From: Alphaproteobacteria bacterium
GTDB taxonomy: Bacteria; Pseudomonadota; Alphaproteobacteria; UBA2966; CAIVPW01
DNA: 64,000 bases
Direction of reading: 5' to 3'
Assembly (NCBI GenBank): GCA_947481575.1
Contig: CANKGV010000014.1
Coordinates: forward strand, 2,903-66,902
The notes beneath the pieces were generated by a model that had not been told where the DNA came from, searched no databases, and saw only the letters and a list, made by a program, of their open reading frames with translations. A program made the position numbers and the translations under genes. This document shows, in pieces, positions 6,567 through 19,579 of this stretch (positions are counted from its first letter, which is position 1; each line of letters begins with the position of its first letter).

Positions 6567-8075
6567 CTACCACAACGAGCCCTGGCGCCGCAGACGTTCC
6601 TGCTCGGCCTCTGACAATGTGCGCGGCTTCGGGCGGGCCGGACCGGCCGGCACGCCCGCCCCGGCCACGGCCGGGATATGGCCGTCCTTGAGTTCGATGT
6701 CCAGAACCGTACCCGGCGTGATGCCGGTGGCGGACGTGAGGGGCTGGCCATCGGCACCCGTGACCAGCGCATAACCACGCGCAAGCACGTTGTGATGGCT
6801 TAGCGCTTCGAGCCGGTTGGCGAGTGCTTCCAGGCGCTGACCTCGGGCATCGAGGCCGCGGGCGACTTCGCGGCGCAGGCGGGCACCGAGGTCGATGGCA
6901 ACGCGGTTGCCATCGCGTACGGCGCGCCCGAGCAAAGTGGGGCGCAACCGTGCCGCCGCTGCGACCAGTTGTTGGCCGCGCAGGCCGAGCAACCGGGTGT
7001 GGGCGCGCGACAGACGCGGTAACGCTTGATCGAGGCGCTGGCGGGCGCGCTGCACCATGCCGCTGCGGGCTTGTTCAAGGCGGTGGGCGGCGTGGTCGAG
7101 ACGCTGTTCGGCGCGGCCGAGCAGGTCGCGCGGACCGCGCAGGCCGCGGCCCAACGCCGATAGGGTCAGGCGGCGGCGTTCCAGCACGCGGGATTGGGCA
7201 GTGGCGAGCCGGGAACCAACCGCGGCGATCTTCGCGACGAGATCGGCGCGCATCGGCACCGCCATTTCGGCGGCGGCGGTGGGCGTGGGAGCGCGCAGGT
7301 CAGCGGCGAAATCGATCAACGTGGTGTCGGTTTCGTGGCCGACGGCGGAGATCACCGGAATCGTGCTGGCGGCGACGGCGCGCACCACGATCTCTTCGTT
7401 GAACGCCCACAAGTCTTCGATGCTGCCACCGCCGCGGGCGACGATCAGCACATCGGGACGCGGCAGCATGGCGGTATCGAACGTGTTGAAGCCGGCGATG
7501 GCGGCGGCGATTTCGGCGGCTGCGGTTTCGCCCTGCACGGAGACCGGCCACAGCAGCACGCGGCGCGGAAAGCGTTCGCGCAGGCGGTGCAGGATGTCGC
7601 GGATCACCGCGCCGGTAGGCGAGGTGATGACGCCGATCACCTCCGGCAGATACGGGATCGGGCGCTTGCGGGAGGGATCAAACAGTCCCTCGGCGGCGAG
7701 TTTCTTCTTGCGGTCTTCGAGCAGCTTGAGCAGCGCGCCGACACCGGCGAGGGCGATCGAATCGACCACCACCTGGTAGCGCGAACTGCCGGGGTAGGTG
7801 GTGAGCTTGCCGGAGACCACCACCTCCATGCCGTTTTCCGGCTGGACCTTGATCCGCGCTGCCGTGGTGCGCCAGCACACGGCGTTGAGCAGTGCGTCGG
7901 CGTCCTTCAGGTCGAAATACACGTGGCCGCTGGGGGCGCGCTTCAGGTTGGTGACTTCGCCGCGCACGCGAACCCGGCCGAACGCGCCTTCCACCATCGA
8001 GCGGATGGCGTTGGCCAGTTCGGAGACGCTGAATTCGTGCGCGCCGGGGGCGGCTTCGGTTTCGGGTACGGTCAC
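6567..8075 (-). CDS. xseA: Exodeoxyribonuclease VII large subunit
   Basis: FSVSEL, SGHVYFDLKD, GVITSPTGAVIRDI, VARGGGSIEDLWAFNEE, SAVGHETD, APTPTAAAE. Start GTG 8075 is approximate. Confidence 0.95.
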   Translation of the reverse strand: MTVPETEAAPGAHEFSVSELANAIRSMVEGAFGRVRVRGEVTNLKRAPSGHVYFDLKDADALLNAVCWRTTAARIKVQPENGMEVVVSGKLTTYPGSSRYQVVVDSIALAGVGALLKLLEDRKKKLAAEGLFDPSRKRPIPYLPEVIGVITSPTGAVIRDILHRLRERFPRRVLLWPVSVQGETAAAEIAAAIAGFNTFDTAMLPRPDVLIVARGGGSIEDLWAFNEEIVVRAVAASTIPVISAVGHETDTTLIDFAADLRAPTPTAAAEMAVPMRADLVAKIAAVGSRLATAQSRVLERRRLTLSALGRGLRGPRDLLGRAEQRLDHAAHRLEQARSGMVQRARQRLDQALPRLSRAHTRLLGLRGQQLVAAAARLRPTLLGRAVRDGNRVAIDLGARLRREVARGLDARGQRLEALANRLEALSHHNVLARGYALVTGADGQPLTSATGITPGTVLDIELKDGHIPAVAGAGVPAGPARPKPRTLSEAEQERLRRQGSLW

Positions 8076-8119
8076 GGCGCTCTCATGGTACAAGACCCGC
8101 CTTCGGTTCGGGAAATCGC

Positions 8120-9388
8120 ATGAACGTTCTGGTGGTCGGATCCGGTGGCCGCGAGCACGCCCTGTGCTGGGGCATTGCCGCGTCGCCGCTGTTGGAAAAG
8201 CTGTACTGCGCGCCGGGCAATGGCGGCATCGCCGCCGACGCGGAATGCGTGAGCCTGGATACCGCCAACAACGATGCCGTGGTGCGGTGGTGCCGTACCA
8301 ACAAGATCGAACTGGTGGTGGTGGGCCCGGAAGTGCCGTTGGTGGCGGGGCTGGTAGACGCCCTGCGCGATGCCGGGATTCCGGCGTTCGGCCCAACCGC
8401 GAAGGCGGCGATCCTGGAAGGCTCCAAGGCCTTCATGAAGGACCTGTGCGCCAAGTATGACATCCCGACGGCCGCCTATGGCCGGTTCCGCGATGCGTCG
8501 GCCGCCAAGGACTATGTGCGCAAAGCCGGGACCCGCGTGGTGGTGAAGGCCGACGGCCTGGCCGCGGGCAAGGGCGTGCGGATGTGCGAGACGGCGGCCG
8601 AGGCGGAAGCCGCGATCGACGCGATGCTGGCGGGCGAGTTCGGCGCGGCCGGGACCGAGATTGTGGTGGAGGAGTATCTGACCGGGGAAGAGGTCAGCTA
8701 CTTCGCGCTGGTGCACGGCGAGCAGGTGCTGCCCTTTGGTTCGGCCCAGGACCACAAGCGCGTGGGCGACGGCGATACGGGACCCAACACCGGCGGCATG
8801 GGCGCGTACTCCCCTGCCCCAGCGCTGACGCCCGCGCTGGAGGCCCAGGTGCTGGAGACCATCATCCGGCCCACGGCCAAAGCCATGGTGCGCGAAGGCC
8901 GGCCGTTCACCGGCGTGTTGTTCGCCGGGCTGATGCTGACGGCAACCGGCCCCAAGCTGCTGGAATACAACGTGCGGTTCGGCGACCCGGAGTGTCAGGT
9001 GCTGGTGCCGCGGCTGAAATCGGACCTGCTGACGGTGCTGATGGCGGCGCAGCAGGGCATCCTGAATAAGGTCGATATGCGCTGGTACACGGACACCGCC
9101 CTGTGCATCGTGATGGCAGCCAAGGGGTACCCCGGCGCCTACGCCAAGAGTTCGCCGATCGGTGGACTGGAGGCGGCGGCCAAACTGCCGGGCGTGACGG
9201 TGTTCCATGCCGGTACCACCAAAGACGGCGCGACGATCCGCGCCAACGGAGGTCGTGTGCTCGGCGTAACCGCCCTGGGCAAAGATGCACGCGAGGCCCA
9301 GGCACGGGCGTACGCTGCGGTCGATGCGATCCAGTGGCCGGAAGGATTTTGCCGCCGTGACATCGGCTGGCGCGCCGTTCTCGCGTAA
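8120..9388 (+). CDS. purD: Phosphoribosylamine-glycine ligase
   Basis: GSGGREHAL, APGNGG, VVGPEVPL, KADGLAAGKGV, QDHKRVGDGDTGPNTGGMGAY, EYNVRFGDPECQ, FCRRDIG. Confidence 0.98.
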   Translation: MNVLVVGSGGREHALCWGIAASPLLEKLYCAPGNGGIAADAECVSLDTANNDAVVRWCRTNKIELVVVGPEVPLVAGLVDALRDAGIPAFGPTAKAAILEGSKAFMKDLCAKYDIPTAAYGRFRDASAAKDYVRKAGTRVVVKADGLAAGKGVRMCETAAEAEAAIDAMLAGEFGAAGTEIVVEEYLTGEEVSYFALVHGEQVLPFGSAQDHKRVGDGDTGPNTGGMGAYSPAPALTPALEAQVLETIIRPTAKAMVREGRPFTGVLFAGLMLTATGPKLLEYNVRFGDPECQVLVPRLKSDLLTVLMAAQQGILNKVDMRWYTDTALCIVMAAKGYPGAYAKSSPIGGLEAAAKLPGVTVFHAGTTKDGATIRANGGRVLGVTALGKDAREAQARAYAAVDAIQWPEGFCRRDIGWRAVLA

Positions 9389-10730: not shown

Positions 10731-11321
10731 ATGGCGCCGCAAAAGCTTGGCACCGTCCGCATCATTGCGGGCCGCCACCGCGGCCGCCGCATCAGCGTGC
10801 CGGAAGACAACGTGCGCCCGACCGGCGACCGGGTGCGGGAAGCGATGTTCAATGTGCTGGCCCACAACTCGTGGCGCGGCGCCACCCTGCCCGCGGGCGC
10901 CCGCGTGTTGGACGCGTTTGCCGGGACCGGCGCGCTAGGCTTTGAGGCGCTGTCGCGCGGCGCGGCGGAAGTGATGTTCCTGGAAACCGACGCCCGCACC
11001 CGCAAGGCACTGGGCCGCACCATCGACGAGCTGGACGAGGCCAAGCGGGCGTATGTGCTGCCGCGGGATGCCACGAACCCCGGGCCGCCGATCGGCAAGC
11101 AGCGCTTCGACTTGATGTTTGCCGACGCGCCCTATGGCACAGGGCTAGGCGTGATCGCGATCGATGTGTGCGCGCGGTTCGGCTGGCTGACCAATGGCGC
11201 GGTGGTGGTGCTGGAACTGGACGGCACCGACCCGTTCGAGCCGCCCCGCGACTTCACCGTGGTGGACGACCGCAGTTACGGCCGCACGCGGCTGGTGTTC
11301 CTGGAATACACCGCCACCTAG
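10731..11321 (+). CDS. rsmD: 16S rRNA m2G966 methyltransferase
   Basis: VRIIAGRHRGR, RPTGDRVREAMFN, LDAFAGTGALGFEALSRGA, RSYGRT. Start ATG 10731. Confidence 0.93.
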   Translation: MAPQKLGTVRIIAGRHRGRRISVPEDNVRPTGDRVREAMFNVLAHNSWRGATLPAGARVLDAFAGTGALGFEALSRGAAEVMFLETDARTRKALGRTIDELDEAKRAYVLPRDATNPGPPIGKQRFDLMFADAPYGTGLGVIAIDVCARFGWLTNGAVVVLELDGTDPFEPPRDFTVVDDRSYGRTRLVFLEYTAT

Positions 11322-12290
11322 CTACCGCGCGGCGGCGAACTTCTCGACCGCGTTGCGCGACGGTTGGATCGAGCGCAGGTAGTCGTAGATGGTGCCGAGA
11401 TCGAACTCGGTCATCCCGGAGAATTCCCACCACGGCATGACCGTATTGGGCTCGCCCGGCGCCACCTTCATCTTGCGATGGTCCTCTTCGGTGTTGGACC
11501 GGAAGCGGGCGATGAACTGTTCGCGCGTCCATTTGCCGATACCGGTCTCGTTGTCTGGCGTGATGTTGGCGGAGCGCACCAAGTACTGGCCCGGCTCGTT
11601 GAACTCCCTTCCGCCGGCAAACGGCACCCCAACCGGGTTGCCTTGCGCGTCCATCCTGGTATGGCAGTGGCCGCAGCCGGCGGCCGTGACCATGTACTTG
11701 CCGTAGGCGATCGCTTCCTTGGACGGCGGACGCTGCACGAACTGCGCATCGTGCGGCAACGTACGGACGAGCAGGTTGACCGGAAAATCGAGTTGGTTCG
11801 GCGGCGGCACGTTCTTGACGGTCGGGATCGTGCGCAAATAGGCGATCACCGAATACAGGTCGTCACGTTCCAGGGTGCCGTAGTCGGCATAGGGCATGAC
11901 CGGGAACAGCGCGCGGCCGTCTTTGGAAACGCCGGCGGTGATGGCGCGCAGCAACTCGCCGTCGGTCCATTCGCGCAGGGCGCCCTGGGTGATGTTGCGC
12001 GAGTAGACGACGCCCGGCACGCCATGGCCCTGGTGGAAGGCGCGGCCGCCGCCGAACTGGGTTTCTGGCACCGGCGGACCGGCAAAGGCGTCGGCCACCG
12101 GCTGCGAATGGCAACCGCGGCAGCCCATGACGTTGTTGACGAGGTAGCCCCCACGGAGAAGGCGATCGGTGGTGCGGTCGATCGCCAGCTGCGAGGGGCC
12201 CGCCACATTGGGGTAGTGCAGGAAGAAGTACCCGGTAGCGGCGCCGATCAGCACCACAACGGCCAACAAAATCAACCCGACTACCCGCAT
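11322..12290 (-). CDS. Diheme c-type cytochrome with N-terminal membrane anchor
   Basis: Two heme motifs, CRGCH and CGHCH, each followed by NIT and MP(Y/W) segments as in cytochrome c subunits of membrane dehydrogenases. Hydrophobic N-terminus. Confidence 0.88.
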   Translation of the reverse strand: MRVVGLILLAVVVLIGAATGYFFLHYPNVAGPSQLAIDRTTDRLLRGGYLVNNVMGCRGCHSQPVADAFAGPPVPETQFGGGRAFHQGHGVPGVVYSRNITQGALREWTDGELLRAITAGVSKDGRALFPVMPYADYGTLERDDLYSVIAYLRTIPTVKNVPPPNQLDFPVNLLVRTLPHDAQFVQRPPSKEAIAYGKYMVTAAGCGHCHTRMDAQGNPVGVPFAGGREFNEPGQYLVRSANITPDNETGIGKWTREQFIARFRSNTEEDHRKMKVAPGEPNTVMPWWEFSGMTEFDLGTIYDYLRSIQPSRNAVEKFAAAR

Positions 12291-12344
12291 GGCATCCCCT
12301 CAGCGCAAACGCTGGCGCACCATAATTCGGATGGGGGCGCGGGG

Positions 12345-12411
12345 CTAGCGGGCGGCGGTGTTGACGATGCAGCGAAACACCGACCGCAGCACAAAGTCGC
12401 CGCGCCAGATG
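12345..12411 (-). pseudogene. Detached copy of the 3' end of the SNase-like gene at 17123-17620
   Basis: 12352-12411 matches 17130-17189 at 56 of 60 nt. Both have an in-frame TAG at the same relative position. It translates IWRGDFVLRSVFRCIVNTAAR* versus IWRGDFVLPSVFRRIVNTAAK*. Confidence 0.85.
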
Positions 12412-12451
12412 GCGAAGGCGGCCGCCAGTTTTGCCCCGACCCTGACCAAAG

Positions 12452-13939
12452 TCAGTTTGGCTGAAATCCCGCTGGCAGGTCCGCGTCCACCCACAAGGTG
12501 CCGTCAATTGTGGTGTCGGCTAGATTGGCCGAAGTGAGCCGGGAGTACGACAGGTCGGTCCGAGTAAGGTCGGCGCCTCGCAGGTTCACCCCGAAGAGAT
12601 CGGCCCCCTGCAAATCGGCGCCGGTGAGGTTGGCGCCAGCCATGACCGCGCGCCACATCACCACATCCTCCATTTTGGCCATGGTTAGGTTGGCGCGGTC
12701 CATACGTGCGTCGTGAAACCACGAATCCGTCAGGTCGGCGCCGGTGAAGTCCGCGTCGTTCATGCGCGCCTCGCGCAGATCGACCGCCTTCAGCACGGCG
12801 CCAGTGAGCCGGGCGCCGATGAACTGAATCTTGCCTGCGGCCGCACCGGTGAGGTCCGCGCGGGTAAGGTCGGCGCCATCGAAGCGGCTCTCGAACAGCA
12901 TCGTGCCAACCAACTTAGCCGCGGACAGATTCGCGCGCTTCAGATCCGCGCGGTTGATATTGGCCCCAGAGAGATCGGCGCCAGCGAGGTTGGCACCCGA
13001 GAGAGTCGCACCATGCAAGTTGGCACCGGAAAGATCGGCACCGGCGAGGTTGGCACCGGTCAGGTCGGCGCGCTTCAGGTTTACCCCGCGCAAATCGCAC
13101 CGAGCGCAGCTGCGCGCCCTTGCGATCAATTGGTCCTTTTCAGTCTGCCCCGGCGCAGGCAACCGGGCGACACGCTCTGCCGCGTCTACAATCGGATTGG
13201 CTAGAACGAGCTCGAATCTCGTCGAACTCTCGAATTGCCCTTCGGTCGGCAGACGGGTGACCGCATCGATCGCGCCTTGCCCTGGTCTGCGGAAGTTGTG
13301 GACCTCCATGGCCAACTTCAGGCCTGCCGCCGGATCGTCCTTGCGGCATGCGCGCTTGATATAGGACGCGTGATAGTCGGCCTCGCCGGCAAGCCGGGGC
13401 AAGTCCTGGCATTGCCAGTCAAACTCGCCGTACTGGCCCAACAGATACCCAGACAGGGTCACACCGTTCTCACGAATGCTCGGCGGCAGCCGGGAATCGG
13501 TGACCATGCGAACACCCACCAAGAAGCCAGTGTCGTCGAACAGCGCCGAGGCAATGATCGGGATCGCGAAGACCGAGGTGTACTGGTACAGCGCGACCTG
13601 GGTCGGCAGGCTACGCGCCCGCGCCCAATACTCGGGTTCGTCGTCGTACCGGAAATACACTTCGTGGTAGCCGCCGCCCGGTTCGGCCGGGCACTTGCCA
13701 AATTCGGTCCAGCCTCCCAGCGGCCGAGCCGGTGGGCCGCCATTGGTGCCACAGGCAAAATCGATGAACTCATCGACCGGCAATTCTCTGGCATGGGACC
13801 CCAGCTTCAAGTCCCATAACGACGGCGCGTACAACCCTGCATCTGCCGCCACGTTCTGACCCGTTGCGGCTCCAGCCGCTACGAACGCGCCGAGTACCGT
13901 GGCAAGGCCGAGGTTGCGCAGAGGAGAGCCAAAGCCCAT
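12452..13939 (-). CDS. Secreted protein: Cys-containing N-terminal domain of unknown function fused to pentapeptide repeats
   Basis: Signal peptide from ATG 13939; N-domain with FACGTNGGPP; then CARCDL followed by a long A(D/N)LxG pentapeptide array. Confidence 0.85.
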   Translation of the reverse strand: MGFGSPLRNLGLATVLGAFVAAGAATGQNVAADAGLYAPSLWDLKLGSHARELPVDEFIDFACGTNGGPPARPLGGWTEFGKCPAEPGGGYHEVYFRYDDEPEYWARARSLPTQVALYQYTSVFAIPIIASALFDDTGFLVGVRMVTDSRLPPSIRENGVTLSGYLLGQYGEFDWQCQDLPRLAGEADYHASYIKRACRKDDPAAGLKLAMEVHNFRRPGQGAIDAVTRLPTEGQFESSTRFELVLANPIVDAAERVARLPAPGQTEKDQLIARARSCARCDLRGVNLKRADLTGANLAGADLSGANLHGATLSGANLAGADLSGANINRADLKRANLSAAKLVGTMLFESRFDGADLTRADLTGAAAGKIQFIGARLTGAVLKAVDLREARMNDADFTGADLTDSWFHDARMDRANLTMAKMEDVVMWRAVMAGANLTGADLQGADLFGVNLRGADLTRTDLSYSRLTSANLADTTIDGTLWVDADLPAGFQPN

Positions 13940-13944
13940 CGGTA

Positions 13945-14484
13945 CTATCGCCCCGCGCCCGCGGCCGGTGCGTATTCCCTGCAGCGGGTTCCATTGGCGC
14001 CCCAGAACGCCACACATTCCTCGCGTGTGGGAGGCGGCTTGCCCACAAACGTGGCGACGATGAACGCGGCCAGCGCATCCGCTTCCCGCTTGGTCAAGGT
14101 CACGCTGCCCTGCCCCGGCGCTTGCGTACCAAGCTGGGCTCGAGTCATGCCGAAGCACCGGTCGTCCTCGTATGCTCGGGCATCGAAATAGGGCATCTCG
14201 GTCGTGGGCCGCCCGCACAGAATGGTTTCCGCAAGCTGTGCCGCGTCCAGCTGGGTCTCGCGGAGATTGGCGCCCCGGGGCGCCTGCGGGTCGTCCGGAA
14301 GCCCGTTGCCGCTCCAGCCGTGACAATCCTTGCACGGCACCTTGTTGACCCACACGCTCTTGCCGAGGTTTACCGCGGCCGCGTCCTGCGCGACGGCGGG
14401 GCCTCCCCCGGCTGAAAGCACAACTACGAACAGAGAGGCGACGGCAGCGACCGCCACGCCAAGAAACAAGAACTTGCCGACCAT
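13945..14484 (-). CDS. Monoheme c-type cytochrome
   Basis: Signal peptide, CKDCH heme motif, distal EMPYF (probable axial Met), plus additional Cys residues. Confidence 0.88.
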   Translation of the reverse strand: MVGKFLFLGVAVAAVASLFVVVLSAGGGPAVAQDAAAVNLGKSVWVNKVPCKDCHGWSGNGLPDDPQAPRGANLRETQLDAAQLAETILCGRPTTEMPYFDARAYEDDRCFGMTRAQLGTQAPGQGSVTLTKREADALAAFIVATFVGKPPPTREECVAFWGANGTRCREYAPAAGAGR

Positions 14485-14524
14485 TGACCCCCCGGCTTTG
14501 GCATTACATCTCGGGCGAAACGAA

Positions 14525-14555
14525 GTGGGGGGGCCGGCGAACCGGCCCCACCCAC
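14525..14555 (-). terminator. Intrinsic terminator or stabilising hairpin between the PQQ dehydrogenase and cytochrome c genes
   Basis: 13-bp stem with one bulge. On the minus strand the loop is UUCG and it is followed by UUCGUUUC. Confidence 0.6.
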
Positions 14556-14577
14556 ATTCTGCTTTCGGTTCTGCGCC

Positions 14578-16356
14578 CTAAAGCGAGAACACGTAGAGCA
14601 TCGCAGCGGGGAGTTGATCCTTCAACTCCGGCCAATCGTCGCCGCCCGCGCCGGGTGCACCGACCATGACAGCGATGAACTGCTTGGTGCCAATGGAGTA
14701 GGCCATTGGGGGTGCCTTGATCGCGGTGCCGGTTTCGAACCGCCACATCTCCGCCAGCGTCTCATCGTTGTGCGCGGTGATGCTGCCGTCGATGTTCGCG
14801 GTGAAAACGAGCCCGCCCGCGGTGGCAAGCATGCCCGACCGGTTGGAGTGCGGAAGCGGCAGCCGCGCCTTCAATGTGCCGGTCGTCACGTCCAGGATCG
14901 TGAGCAGGCCGTGCAGCGTTCCGGCGTGCGTTGCGGTTCCCGGCTTGGAGCGGCCCTTTTCATCGATCCCCCCATTTGCCAGCGTGACCGACGGGACAAT
15001 CTGCCTGGTATTGCAGCCGTCCTCGCCACCCGAGTAGGCGAGGCGCTTGACCGGGTTGTAGGCCGGTGGTTGCCAACGCAGACCGCCTTCCAGCGGCGGG
15101 CAAGCGGTCTTGGCCACCGTGTCGGCACGAGCCCAACGCGTCGCCGGAATGTAGGTCTGGAGTGCTTTGCCCGGATCGTATTCCAATGGCTTGCCGGTCT
15201 TGGGATCGATCCCGGCCGTCCAGGTCACCTTTTCGTTGAACTGAACCGCATTCAAGAACTGACCATTGGTGCGGTCGAGCTGGTAGGCAAAGCCGTTGCG
15301 GTCGAAATGCAACACCATCTTCTTGCCGGCCTGCCCTTTGAAGTCGGCGTCGATCAGCATGTGCACGCCCTGGGCGTCGTAGTCCCAGGACTCATTCGGC
15401 GTGTACTGGAAGAACCACTTGATCTTGCCAGTATCGATATCGAATGCGACCGCGCTGTTTGAATAGAGGTTGTCGCCAGGGCGGAATTCCGGATCAAACA
15501 TCGGCACGGGCTGCGCCGTGCCCTCGATGATCACGCGCTGGGCGACGTCATACGAGCCGGTCGTCCACAGCGAGGCCCCGCCGGTCTTCCAGGCGTTGTG
15601 GTCATCCTTCCAGGTCTCGTTGCCGGGCTCGCCCGGACGAGGAACTGTATACGTGCGCCAAATCTCCTTGCCGGTGACGGCATCGATCGCCTCCAACCAG
15701 CCAATGGTGCCCGAGTCACCCTTGGCATTGGCGACGAGAATCTTGCCCTCCACCGCCAATGGTGCCTGGGTCATACCCTCCTTCTCCACATTGATATTGG
15801 AGCCCTTGGGATGGGGCACGCGTGCGATCTGCAGGTCGAACTTGATGTCGCCGGACGTGCGATCGACAGCGACGACGCGTCCGTCGGTCATGCCGAGGTA
15901 CACCGAGTTGCCCCACATCGCTTGTCCGCGGGTACGCGCCTGCTCGTCCTTCGACAACGACACGTCGGTGCGCCAGACCGGGACGAACCGATTACCCGGG
16001 CGCACGTCAATCTTGTAGAAGACGCCGCCGGCGTCGTCGAAGTACATGAACCCGTCGTCGACCATCGGCGCGTTCTCAAGCTGTACGTTCGGACGGCCAA
16101 GCAGCGCCGTGGTCAAGGGCACCGTGAAGGCAACCTTCAGATTCTTTACGTTGTTCTGGTTGATCTCACTCAGCCGCGAATAACGGTGCGAGCTGTAGTT
16201 CTGGAAGGTCGTAATCCAATTCTGCGGTTCGGCGTCAGCGTTTTCGAGACGCTGTTTGGTGACATCGGCAGCATGTGCCGGAAGCGCCAAGACGGCAGCA
16301 AGAACTCCACTCAAAATCGTGGTTGTCGCCAACCGCGATGCGAAAATTTCTCGCAT
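14578..16356 (-). CDS. PQQ-dependent dehydrogenase, methanol/ethanol (type I ADH-like) beta-propeller family, atypical clade
   Basis: RLENADAEPQNW..RYSRL.EIN..NV..L, TGKEIW Trp-docking motif, RPGDNLYSNS, YTPNESWDYD, LATAGGLVF, C-terminal YVFSL. RBS GGGAGGAAGG precedes ATG 16356. Confidence 0.9.
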   Translation of the reverse strand: MREIFASRLATTTILSGVLAAVLALPAHAADVTKQRLENADAEPQNWITTFQNYSSHRYSRLSEINQNNVKNLKVAFTVPLTTALLGRPNVQLENAPMVDDGFMYFDDAGGVFYKIDVRPGNRFVPVWRTDVSLSKDEQARTRGQAMWGNSVYLGMTDGRVVAVDRTSGDIKFDLQIARVPHPKGSNINVEKEGMTQAPLAVEGKILVANAKGDSGTIGWLEAIDAVTGKEIWRTYTVPRPGEPGNETWKDDHNAWKTGGASLWTTGSYDVAQRVIIEGTAQPVPMFDPEFRPGDNLYSNSAVAFDIDTGKIKWFFQYTPNESWDYDAQGVHMLIDADFKGQAGKKMVLHFDRNGFAYQLDRTNGQFLNAVQFNEKVTWTAGIDPKTGKPLEYDPGKALQTYIPATRWARADTVAKTACPPLEGGLRWQPPAYNPVKRLAYSGGEDGCNTRQIVPSVTLANGGIDEKGRSKPGTATHAGTLHGLLTILDVTTGTLKARLPLPHSNRSGMLATAGGLVFTANIDGSITAHNDETLAEMWRFETGTAIKAPPMAYSIGTKQFIAVMVGAPGAGGDDWPELKDQLPAAMLYVFSL

Positions 16357-16555
16357 AACCTTCCTCCCAAGGTTTGGCAGAATACCGAAGCGTTTTGGAT
16401 TCAGTGGTCCCACCAGGATGGGGCCTCCCCCATGGCGGCCCCATGAGCACAGTGGCGGGAACCGAATAAGTAAGTCAACCTACGGTCGCAGGCTCGGCGC
16501 CTTGCCGACTGTTCGCGCCTGCAACGTTAGTTTCCGTTTCCTTACAGGTGCAGCG

Positions 16556-17101
16556 ATGGATCCGTTTGACGACTCAAGGGCATTTACGGTGTTCTTGCTA
16601 CGCTTCGTGGCCGTATTTGCGCTGTTCTGCGCTGCTCTGCCGGGACCGGTCGCAGCACAGGATTTGGCGGGGCGGGCCCAGGCACTGCAGGCGGATCAGT
16701 TGATCGTAAACGGTGCACGGATCTCGCTGTTCGGCATCGACGCGCCGGACCCCGACCAGGACCGCCAGTGCACCTTGGGGACACAGAACTTCGGCTGCTA
16801 TTCCAATGCACGGCGGCAGTTACAGATCTTGCTCGACGAGGGCCCGGTCGCTTGCATCGACAGCGGCAAGCGGAACTATGTGAACTTCCCGTACATGACT
16901 TGCACCATTGCCGGGAAGGACATCGGCGAGGCGATGGTACGCACGGGCAACGCGCTGGCCTTCCTTCCCCAGAGCAACAAGTACGCGGATGCCGAGAAAG
17001 CCGCCAAGGCCGACAAGGTCGGCATCTGGCAGACCGGCATCCGGTTCAAGATTCCCTGGGAATGGCGTAACGAAAACGACCGCCCGATCTTCGGACCCTA
17101 G
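16556..17101 (+). CDS. Thermonuclease (SNase-fold) family protein, degenerate active site
   Basis: LFGIDAPDPDQ, C..G..DIGEAMVRTGNA, Y..AEKAAKADKVGIW, PWEWR. Signal-like N-terminus. Start approximate. Confidence 0.82.
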   Translation: MDPFDDSRAFTVFLLRFVAVFALFCAALPGPVAAQDLAGRAQALQADQLIVNGARISLFGIDAPDPDQDRQCTLGTQNFGCYSNARRQLQILLDEGPVACIDSGKRNYVNFPYMTCTIAGKDIGEAMVRTGNALAFLPQSNKYADAEKAAKADKVGIWQTGIRFKIPWEWRNENDRPIFGP

Positions 17102-17122
17102 CGTTGCTGACGGGCCCGGCCG

Positions 17123-17620
17123 CTACTTTGCGGCTGTGTTGACGATGCGGCGAAACACCGATGGCAGCACAAAGTCGCCGCGCCAGATGCCGGCGCGGTC
17201 CTTGGATGCCTGTTGCTCGATGGCTAGGTATTCGGGGGCCTCGGCGCGGACGGCGAGCGCCCAGCCGAACTGAACCATGACCGCCGCGAGGTCGCGGCCG
17301 TTGGCCCGGCAGCGGGCGGTGGCGTAGCCGGTGTCGTCGATGCCGGCGGGCGTGCATTCAACCGCGCGGCCGGCCGTGAGCCCGGTTAGGGCATCGCGAG
17401 CCTGGCCGCCGCACGCCCAGGGCTTTTCCAGCACCGTGCAGGTTTGATAGCGCTCCGGCGCGTCGATGCCGAACAGGCGGTAGGTGGTGCCGGAAATTTC
17501 GAGGGTATCGCCGTCGATGGCCGTGACCGCTTCCAGTGCGGAAACGCCAAAGGGGATCGCTGCAGCCGCCGCGGCCAGCATCAGAATGAGCGTTGCGACG
17601 AAGGAACGGCGCACCAGCAC
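17123..17620 (-). CDS. Thermonuclease (SNase-fold) family protein
   Basis: AIDGDTL, YRLFGIDAPE, C...PWACG, DLAAVMVQFGWA, AGIWRGDF. Confidence 0.88.
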   Translation of the reverse strand: MLVRRSFVATLILMLAAAAAAIPFGVSALEAVTAIDGDTLEISGTTYRLFGIDAPERYQTCTVLEKPWACGGQARDALTGLTAGRAVECTPAGIDDTGYATARCRANGRDLAAVMVQFGWALAVRAEAPEYLAIEQQASKDRAGIWRGDFVLPSVFRRIVNTAAK

Positions 17621-17776
17621 TCCTTATTGCTGAGATCGATTCTAACCCTTTGAGATTCCTAGGAAAGCAGTAACTCGAAACTGCACAGTTCGTAGGCACG
17701 GGGACTCGCTTGCACACCGAACGTGCAGTTTAGGGTGCTTTGGGGTTGTGCAGGATTGCGGCGGCAATCCCGGCGG

Positions 17777-19579
17777 CTAGCGCCGGCCGAACAGCCGCTC
17801 GATATCGGCGAGCTTGAGTTCGACGTAGGTGGGGCGGCCGTGGCCGCACTGGCCGGAGTGCGGGGTGGCTTCCATCTCGCGCAACAGCGCGTTCATCTCG
17901 GTGCCGGTGAGCTGGCGGCCGGCCCGCACGCTGGAGTGGCACGCCATCGTGGCACACACCTCGGACAGCCGATCCTTAAGCGACTGGGCGGCGTCCAAGG
18001 TGCCGAAGTCGTCGGCGAGGTCGCGCACCAGGGCGGGAACGTCGGTCTTCCCGAGCAGCGCCGGGACTTCCCGCACCACCACGGCGCCGGGGCCGAACGG
18101 CTCCACCAGCAGGCCTAACTCGCCGAGTTCTTCGGCGCGCGCGAGGATGCGTTCGGCCTCCAGGGTGCCGAGTTCCACCACTTCGGGAACCAGCAGGAGC
18201 TGGCGGGCGATGCCATTGGCGGCGAGCTGGTTCTTGATGCGCTCGAACACCAGGCGTTCGTGGGCCGCGTGCTGGTCGACAATGACGATGCCGTCGCCGG
18301 TTTCGGCCACCACATACGTGCCGTGGAGCTGCGCGCGGGCGGCCCCCAGGGGGCTGGCGATGGAGTCCGATTCCGCCTCGGCGATGCGGGCGGCAGGGGC
18401 TTCGAGCACCGCATAGCCCGCTTGCGTGGGCGCCGCAAAGCCGGAGGACGGTGCTTGGAACGCGGCGGCTTCGGCCAGGCGGTAGGGCGACGGCGCGGCG
18501 CGCAGGGTGAACTGGGGCGGCGGCAGGTTGGCGCGGGCAACGCCCAGCGCAGCCGTGCCGACCGTGGACGCGGCGCGGTGGCCGGCGCCCGCCAGCGCGT
18601 GGCGCAGTGCACCAACGATCAGGCCGCGCACGAGGCCCGAATCGCGGAAGCGGACTTCGGCCTTGGCAGGGTGGACGTTCACGTCCACCAATTCGGCGGG
18701 CAGATCGAGGTAGAGCGCCAGCACCGGGTGGCGGTCGCGGGCGACGAGGTCTTGGTAGGCGCCGCGCACCACGCCCAGCAGCAGGCGGTCGCGCACCGGG
18801 CGGCCGTTGACGAACAGGTACTGCGACGCCGCCGAGGGCCGGTGCAGCGTGGGCAGACCGATGTAGCCGGTGAGCCGCACGCCATCGCGCTCGGCCTCGA
18901 TCTTCAGCGCATTGTCGGGGAACTCGCGGCCGAGGACGCGGCCTAAACGCTCCAAGCGCCGGTCCGCCACATCGCCCAGCACCACCGGCATGTTCAGCAC
19001 GTTGCGCCCGGCGTCGTCGACGGTGAAGGCGACATGGTCGGCCACCATCGCCAAGCGGCGTACGGCGTCGACGACGTGGCCGGCTTCGGTGCGCTCCTGC
19101 TTCAGGAACTTGAGCCGCGCGGGCACCGGATAGAACAGATCGCGCACTTCGATGCGGGTGCCCCCGGGGAGCGCGGCCGGGACCGGGGCGGAGACGCGGC
19201 CGGCATCGACTTCGACGGACCAGGCTTCGGCAGCGCCCTTGGGGCGGGACGCGATGGTCATGCGGCTGACGGCGCCGATGCTCGGCAGCGCCTCGCCGCG
19301 AAAGCCGAGGGTGGCGATGTGGACCAGGTCGTCGTCGGGCAACTTGGAGGTGGCGTGGCGCTCGACGGCGAGCAGCAGGTCGGCCGGGCTCATGCCGGAG
19401 CCGTCGTCGGCCACCACGATGGCGCGCTGGCCGCCGCCTTCCAACCGCACGTCGATGCGGCGGGCGCCGGCATCGAGGGAGTTTTCGACCAGTTCCTTCA
19501 CGGCCGCAGCGGGGCGCTCGATCACCTCACCGGCGGCGATCTGGCTGACGAGCGTGTCGGGTAAGCGGCGGATGGTCAT
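17777..19579 (-). CDS. mutL: DNA mismatch repair endonuclease MutL
   Basis: [62 protein letters not shown]. Confidence 0.98.

Follow-up and report, generated by a model that had tools for sequence, protein, structure and literature searches.

An orphaned 3' end of an SNase-family gene marks an old insertion scar between mutL and a diheme cytochrome gene in an uncultured alphaproteobacterial lineage

Introduction

How did the end of a protein-coding gene come to stand twice in one locus, once at the end of the intact gene and once as an orphan far downstream of it? The question is raised by a stretch of 64,000 nucleotides (nt) of alphaproteobacterial DNA (assembly GCA_947481575.1, contig CANKGV010000014.1, positions 2,903 to 66,902 of the forward strand), which we call the window and in whose coordinates all positions are given. 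The gene concerned, SNase-2, encodes an SNase-family protein and lies next to mutL, and its orphaned tail lies next to a gene for a diheme cytochrome c. A preliminary description made from the letters of the window alone had noted the two tails as a 60-nt direct repeat (12352-12411 and 17130-17189, 56/60 identical) and had listed, correctly, the genes between them: a pentapeptide-repeat protein, a small cytochrome c, a dehydrogenase dependent on pyrroloquinoline quinone (PQQ) and a second SNase-family protein, SNase-1. It took the arrangement for the scar of an integrative element that had lost its integrase, and named tandem duplication with later decay as an alternative. Our analysis identifies the structure as an insertion scar, of old date and fixed in a single uncultured lineage of freshwater Alphaproteobacteria, with the repeat marking both ends of a 4.7-kb laterally acquired block, and weighs the routes by which such a block could have displaced the end of a resident gene.

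The two copies of the repeat are ends of the same coding sequence

The direct repeat is somewhat longer than first described, with 58/63 identical positions at 12352-12414 and 17130-17192 and a start-to-start spacing of 4778 nt, and a repeat search of the whole window found none of any kind that is longer or better. Its 54-nt core, allowing up to 3 mismatches, matches at these two positions only, where 100 shuffles gave an expectation of 0 matches. On the minus strand both copies read in frame into a TAG codon at an equal offset (12345-12347 and 17123-17125). What has been duplicated is thus a gene's last 22 codons; over this in-frame unit 57/66 nt are identical, including a 26-nt stretch of perfect identity. 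The orphan copy translates as AIWRGDFVLRSVFRCIVNTAAR and the C-terminus of SNase-2 as GIWRGDFVLPSVFRRIVNTAAK, each followed by the stop. The right copy is indeed the 3' end of an SNase-like gene, intact and encoding 163 amino acids (aa), and the left copy is the orphan with an in-frame stop that had been proposed, lying in the 161 nt that separate the pentapeptide gene from the diheme cytochrome gene and left uncalled in every assembly.

Ungapped local alignment places sharp boundaries at 12414/17192 on one side and at 12352/17130 on the other. The similarity is confined to 66 nt, limited by the stop codon and by approximately codon 143; the repeats stop at the gene end, and past the stop codon 8/21 positions match when read by eye. 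Both junctions are 100% identical across at least 9 independent assemblies (NCBI metagenome-assembled genomes [MAGs], ENA and Logan, from many sequencing runs) and the whole block is spanned by 4 contigs, which excludes misassembly and establishes the left copy as real; among these records the analysis placed the window in MAG GCA_947475915.1, contig CANJMB010000011.1. Nor is the 60-mer a generic repeat: besides having just two copies in the window, its degenerate tail pattern WRGDFVxxxVFR gave 0 matches in 185,579 species genomes (one per species) and 0 in 2.9 million viral contigs. The final 22 codons of SNase-2 have been truly duplicated.

An origin of the repeat as a structured RNA or terminator was considered and rejected, with fold z-scores of -1.0 and -2.0 that make neither copy unusually stable; Rfam yielded no credible match, and no terminator-like sites lie inside the repeats. 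The repeat search also found no terminal inverted repeats around the block. A 32-nt inverted repeat between SNase-1 and SNase-2 (16727-16758 and 17445-17476, 88% complementary) is not a structural element but arises because the active-site motif LFGIDAP(E/D) is encoded on opposite strands.

The differences between the two tails are unevenly spread

Among the 66 positions of the unit, 9 differ between the copies. The proximal 54 nt hold 4 of these differences, which fall within three radical replacements on the orphan's side: G>A, P>R and R>C. The second and third of these hit columns that show no variation among SNase-1, SNase-2 and remoter homologues. Such changes indicate a decaying orphan, and the left copy is non-coding, with two family-invariant residues lost. 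The last 15 nt hold the other 5 differences, all synonymous or K/R, and the terminal residue is R in the orphan and in P0002, a homologue of SNase-2 described below, and K in SNase-2 itself. This uneven spread (4/54 versus 5/15; Fisher p = 0.019, nominally significant but calculated post hoc on few sites) hints that two already diverged functional tails may have met at the locus, the orphan decaying afterwards. The mismatches fit an old event, as had been suspected from the outset.

The block holds no mobility genes and is fixed in the sampled population

The repeat copies, the genes between them and their neighbours are arranged as follows.

10731-11321, plus strand: rsmD
11322-12290, minus strand: resident diheme cytochrome c (CRGCH, CGHCH), the downstream flank
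12345-12414, minus strand: orphan tail, the last 22 codons and TAG of SNase-2 (repeat proper, 12352-12414)
12415-12451, minus strand: 37-nt junction from the pentapeptide stop to the repeat start, where SNase-2 similarity stops abruptly
12452-13939, minus strand: pentapeptide-repeat protein, 495 aa, PedD-like (Pfam PF00805, E 1.4e-48), with an N-terminal domain of unknown function
13945-14484, minus strand: monoheme c-type cytochrome, 179 aa (CKDCH)
14578-16356, minus strand: PQQ dehydrogenase, putatively of the methanol/ethanol family, 592 aa (Pfam PF01011, E 2.7e-48)
16556-17101, plus strand: SNase-1, 181 aa, divergent (Pfam SNase, E 1.5e-7)
17123-17614, minus strand: SNase-2, 163 aa, intact (Pfam SNase, E 2.4e-10), with the right repeat copy at its end
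17615-17776, minus strand: 162-nt spacer between mutL and SNase-2, absent from relatives
17777-19579, minus strand: mutL, flanking the lineage-specific insertion upstream

SNase-1 and SNase-2 are convergent and 21 nt apart, the stop of the orphan lies 54 nt from the start of the diheme gene, and the non-coding gaps of the block measure 5, 21, 93, 161, 162 and 199 nt. SNase-2 and all 4 cargo proteins have signal-peptide-like N-termini and are predicted to be exported. Directly after the mutL stop, a perfect 7-bp hairpin (GGATTGC-CGCC-GCAATCC, 17753-17770) begins the relatively AT-rich 162-nt spacer that has no counterpart in relatives; it may act as a terminator or belong to the inserted DNA.

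Searches of the block's open reading frames with Pfam and NCBIfam found no recombinase, integrase, transposase or phage domains, only pentapeptide, cytochrome c, PQQ and SNase domains, in agreement with the earlier remark that no integrase had been retained; since the non-coding DNA between genes amounts to only 5-199 nt at a time, there is no space for a recombinase remnant either. Integration linked to a tRNA gene was rejected because the window contains no tRNA. All of the 17-21 contigs read per anchor gene are in the filled state, with no empty or variant allele among them, and the 17/17 contigs with an identical PQQ dehydrogenase share the same context, which gives no hint of mobility at present. 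In the population sampled, the arrangement is fixed.

SNase-2 and its cargo are absent from the closest relatives

For comparison of the mutL region we surveyed 80 GTDB mutL loci (L001-L080) and 7 closer metagenomic loci (L177-L183). The closest relatives available, six contigs from ENA lake metagenomes (L177-L182) whose MutL is 70-72% identical to that of the window, have the order mutL, a 13-47-nt spacer, diheme cytochrome c, rsmD; their diheme cytochrome is 51-56% identical to that of the window and 322 aa long in L177-L181. In a further locus (L183, MutL 69% identical), mutL is directly followed by rsmD. None of the six contigs carries an SNase gene or a PQQ module between mutL and rsmD, so that all of 12291-17776, SNase-2 included, is specific to the lineage of the window; by this comparison of gene orders, SNase-2 and its cargo constitute a 5.4-kb lineage-specific insertion between mutL and the resident diheme gene. 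An empty site in which SNase-2 is directly followed by the diheme gene had been predicted but was not found, the place being taken by the order of mutL and diheme gene with no SNase. We also rejected the idea that an SNase gene is ancestral downstream of mutL, as none is present there in the 80 GTDB loci and the 7 closer ones. An SNase from the same samples as the relatives (P0004, 48% identical) lies in an unrelated context.

SNase-2 has a single close homologue among 5.8 billion proteins, P0002, which is 67% identical. Its C-terminus, GLWRGDFVQPWVFRRIVDTAAR followed by the stop, is the same tail as in SNase-2, which makes this tail a genuine coding sequence of a small clade. On the 865-nt contig of P0002, a partial gene on the same strand begins 62 nt after the SNase stop and there is no convergent SNase-1, so SNase-2 also exists free of this cargo on its 3' side. 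This context, with its 62 nt compared to the 54 nt from orphan stop to diheme start in the window, suggests a candidate uninterrupted site. The N-terminus of the diheme cytochrome (first 71 aa) as a query for the downstream neighbour of P0002 produced no candidates, and an exhaustive search of its first 50 aa against representatives gave one weak, irrelevant match. A scan of JGI metagenomes with an SNase-2/P0002 profile recovered only SNases that are at most 50% identical, none with the characteristic tail.

Homology-anchored recombination through the SNase-2 tail is the favoured route

The geometry of the locus is that of an intact gene, then cargo, then a displaced 3' fragment in the same orientation that adjoins the old downstream neighbour. 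Taken together with the absence of the cargo from the nearest relatives, this upholds the first interpretation as far as an insertion scar is concerned, but nothing indicates the site-specific element that this interpretation involved. The explanation that we favour, with a confidence that stays tentative, is that homology-anchored recombination through the coding tail of SNase-2 inserted the cargo and displaced the resident tail. SNase-2 would already have been present between mutL and the diheme gene when DNA came in that carried the PQQ module beside a homologous SNase-2 tail; a related donor would be the simplest source of this DNA. One end of this DNA would have recombined with the resident gene via the common coding sequence, and the other end would have been joined without homology at about codon 143, a process of homology-facilitated illegitimate recombination (HFIR); a single crossover with a circularised fragment could have led to an equal product. 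That product would be an intact SNase-2 followed by the cargo, with the resident tail moved 4.8 kb downstream, where it later decayed. Host recombination functions would suffice for these steps, so no element-encoded integrase would be needed.

We favour this course of events because the homology begins abruptly at 12414/17192 and stops at the stop codon, where the contexts of donor and recipient would differ; because the nearest relatives are without the whole block; because orthologous modules occupy other contexts in about 20 loci, of which the closest (L098) also has SNase-1; because P0002 shows an SNase-2 that lacks such cargo behind it; because the uneven spread of differences hints at the meeting of two diverged tails; and because the block has neither a recombinase nor the space to hold one. 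Against it weighs that the donor arrangement, an SNase-2-type gene or tail adjoining a PQQ module, was not found in related loci, and that the intermediate state of mutL, SNase-2 and diheme gene is one we infer rather than demonstrate. In experimental HFIR, moreover, the illegitimate joins usually delete recipient DNA and do not duplicate 66 nt. The argument from heterogeneous divergence is based on only 9 differences, and base composition provides weak evidence of foreign origin: the G+C content at third codon positions is 0.75-0.80 for the cargo, compared to 0.81-0.89 for the flanking housekeeping genes and a crude window background of 0.82 +/- 0.04, so that the cargo is mildly atypical and within the range of window genes. 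Transfer of a gene-transfer-agent-sized fragment was also considered for the 4778-nt unit, and no supporting evidence came to light.

Displaced 3' ends at rhs loci and at effector loci of type VI secretion systems (T6SS) have been attributed to HFIR (PMC5361080). At the rhs, cdiA and T6SS effector-immunity loci (PMC5361080 and references therein), as in the route favoured here, incoming DNA recombines via the conserved part of a resident protein gene, which is kept intact with new DNA after it and the old 3' end orphaned downstream, all without an integrase. What is displaced there is a variable toxin domain together with its immunity gene, and arrays are built up repeatedly, whereas the window has near-identical displaced and current tails, metabolic cargo and a single event. 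The locus does not reveal a new mobility mechanism. It is a known kind of scar with one occurrence in one uncultured lineage. Its value is that of a clean natural example in which a small metabolic module has become fixed at a chromosomal hot spot and has left a displaced gene tail behind, outside the toxin loci that are the usual setting for descriptions of such displacement. From the successive comparisons we infer that the locus is layered, with the diheme cytochrome arriving first, SNase-2 second and the PQQ module third.

Other routes to the same arrangement

The rival that survives best, though we consider it unlikely, starts from a tandem SNase-2 paralogue upstream of the diheme gene and lets the PQQ module later take the place of the spacer and of ~143 codons at the start of the downstream copy, leaving only its tail. 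It would require no donor with an SNase-2 tail, and none was found; the radical changes of the orphan at invariant positions resemble those of a decaying pseudogene, and SNase-family tandem pairs do exist in related MAGs (L264, L266 and L267), although these belong to the SNase-1 subfamily and not to that of SNase-2. Two separate events would be called for, however, with a replacement that spared the upstream copy exactly. The flanking non-coding DNA holds no trace of a paralogue, as similarity goes no further than the stop codon, and the surplus of synonymous or conservative differences within the final five codons would better fit the meeting of two diverged functional tails that homology-anchored recombination implies.

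Less probable again is the version of the preliminary description, a site-specific element with a tyrosine or serine recombinase whose attP site mimicked the 3' end of SNase-2 and whose recombinase was lost or acted in trans. Repeats made up of the 3' end of a target gene and reaching no further than that gene are also seen in islands that target tRNA genes and in SGI1, and the 26-nt stretch of perfect identity could house a crossover core. SGI1 itself integrates in the last 18 bp of thdF/trmE (PMC2297512). Islands at the 3' ends of tRNA and tmRNA genes, like SGI1, share with the window an intact target gene at one end, a displaced 3' copy at the other and repeats that end where the gene ends; they differ in having an integrase beside the attachment site and in recurring at the target in many genomes, neither of which is seen at the window locus. 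Such elements also excise as circles, and the repeat of 63-66 nt is much longer than the 18 bp of SGI1. None of the 4 cargo genes has a recombinase domain, total intergenic DNA of less than 500 nt leaves no pseudogene remnant of one, terminal inverted repeats are missing and every contig is filled. The arrangement does not recur at SNase tails in the species genomes, the viral contigs or 3.6 Mb of related loci. A further expectation of that version, SNase 3' ends flanking this cargo in other places, was looked for beside about 20 related PQQ modules and borne out at none, and a sensitive search of the 3.6 Mb of fetched loci detected no tail-like fragment adjoining any PQQ module.

There is also a slim chance that the tail of SNase-2 is the attachment site of an unrecognised, integrase-free metabolic cassette that inserts via about 60 nt of SNase homology or is mobilised in trans by an unlinked recombinase. 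If so, SNase-fold genes in freshwater Alphaproteobacteria would repeatedly serve PQQ-dehydrogenase modules as a landing pad.

Similarly improbable is a long target-site duplication, in which the cargo would have entered at a staggered break of ~66 nt near the end of SNase-2 and gap repair would have duplicated the target. Such an event would need no SNase tail on the incoming DNA and would explain why both boundaries are sharp. Known transposition systems, however, duplicate approximately 2-15 bp, the block has neither a transposase domain nor terminal inverted repeats, and 5 differences in the last 15 nt, all synonymous or conservative, sit badly with copies that were initially identical. Finally, similarity by chance, a generic dispersed repeat or an artefact of assembly can be dismissed in view of the 0 expected matches, the mere two copies in the window, the identical junctions in at least 9 assemblies and the lack of matches in the collections.

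The cargo is a PQQ-dehydrogenase module with an added SNase gene

The biology of the cargo matches a known type of gene cluster. In the ped/exa clusters of Pseudomonas, pedD encodes a pentapeptide protein, pedE/exaA a PQQ alcohol dehydrogenase and pedF/exaB cytochrome c550 (PMC12997753). The cargo resembles these clusters in its three parts, with a PQQ dehydrogenase that is putatively of the methanol/ethanol family, a small cytochrome of the c type and an exported protein with pentapeptide repeats, and its proteins are putative orthologues of PedD, PedE and PedF. It departs from these clusters in a dehydrogenase that scores below the cut-off of its NCBIfam family (TIGR03075, 388.6 versus 480 bits) while matching PF01011 as listed above, in an additional N-terminal domain of ~275 aa and unknown function on the pentapeptide protein, and in the SNase-family gene embedded in the module. 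The 179-aa cytochrome adjoins the PQQ dehydrogenase in most related loci and is likely its electron acceptor. The dehydrogenase also matches the model "acido-empty-quinoprotein group A" and contains a WDYDA motif at 15373-15387. The second Asp of such a motif (D-Y-D) is characteristic of XoxF/PedH-type enzymes, which depend on lanthanides.

The module of PQQ dehydrogenase, 179-aa cytochrome and pentapeptide protein recurs with variable gene order in about 20 alphaproteobacterial MAG loci (L098-L116 and L121), where it sits in other genomic contexts. It can be multi-copy: binchicken_co179_114 has at least 8 such loci, and Bauldia sp. STL-PRO26 has 5. The closest module, that of a Lake Baikal MAG (L098), has a dehydrogenase that is 66-70% identical and includes an SNase-1 orthologue (58% identical), in another genomic context and with no SNase-2-like flank. 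Other SNase-1 orthologues do not adjoin PQQ modules and often form tandem pairs; we rejected SNase genes as regular partners of PQQ modules, as only L098 and the window have one.

SNase-1 and SNase-2 are 32% identical to each other. The SNase-1 subfamily (with members at L098 4865-5410 and in L264-L267) reads ISLFGIDAPD, compared to RLFGIDAPE in SNase-2 and other homologues, so the positions where the Arg and Glu of the nuclease active site are expected are changed throughout the subfamily. It also has a C-terminal tail of its own, PWEWR...RPxxGP.

The junction of mutL and rsmD in other Alphaproteobacteria

In many Alphaproteobacteria mutL is directly followed by rsmD, rluB and tadA with gaps of tens of nt. 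Loci with mutL and rsmD tens of nt apart include L004, L010, L026, L036 and L073, and others hold 1-5 kb of variable, unrelated genes between the two (for example, L001, L002, L033, L067 and L074). Judged by these gene orders, the junction of mutL and rsmD is a recurrent insertion point in Alphaproteobacteria.

The diheme cytochrome that stands at this junction in the window and its closest relatives is more divergent than its neighbours, with 53-56% identity to L177-L181 versus 58-79% for neighbouring proteins (MutL 71-72%, PurD 68-70%, TadA 73-79%). Its best matches in the species-genome collection come from Neomarinimicrobiota, Bacteroidota and Parvibaculaceae (44-49%). In L182 (MutL 70% identical) the diheme orthologue is split into two overlapping open reading frames (7770-8629), which is due either to a frameshift that made it a pseudogene or to an indel error of long-read assembly.

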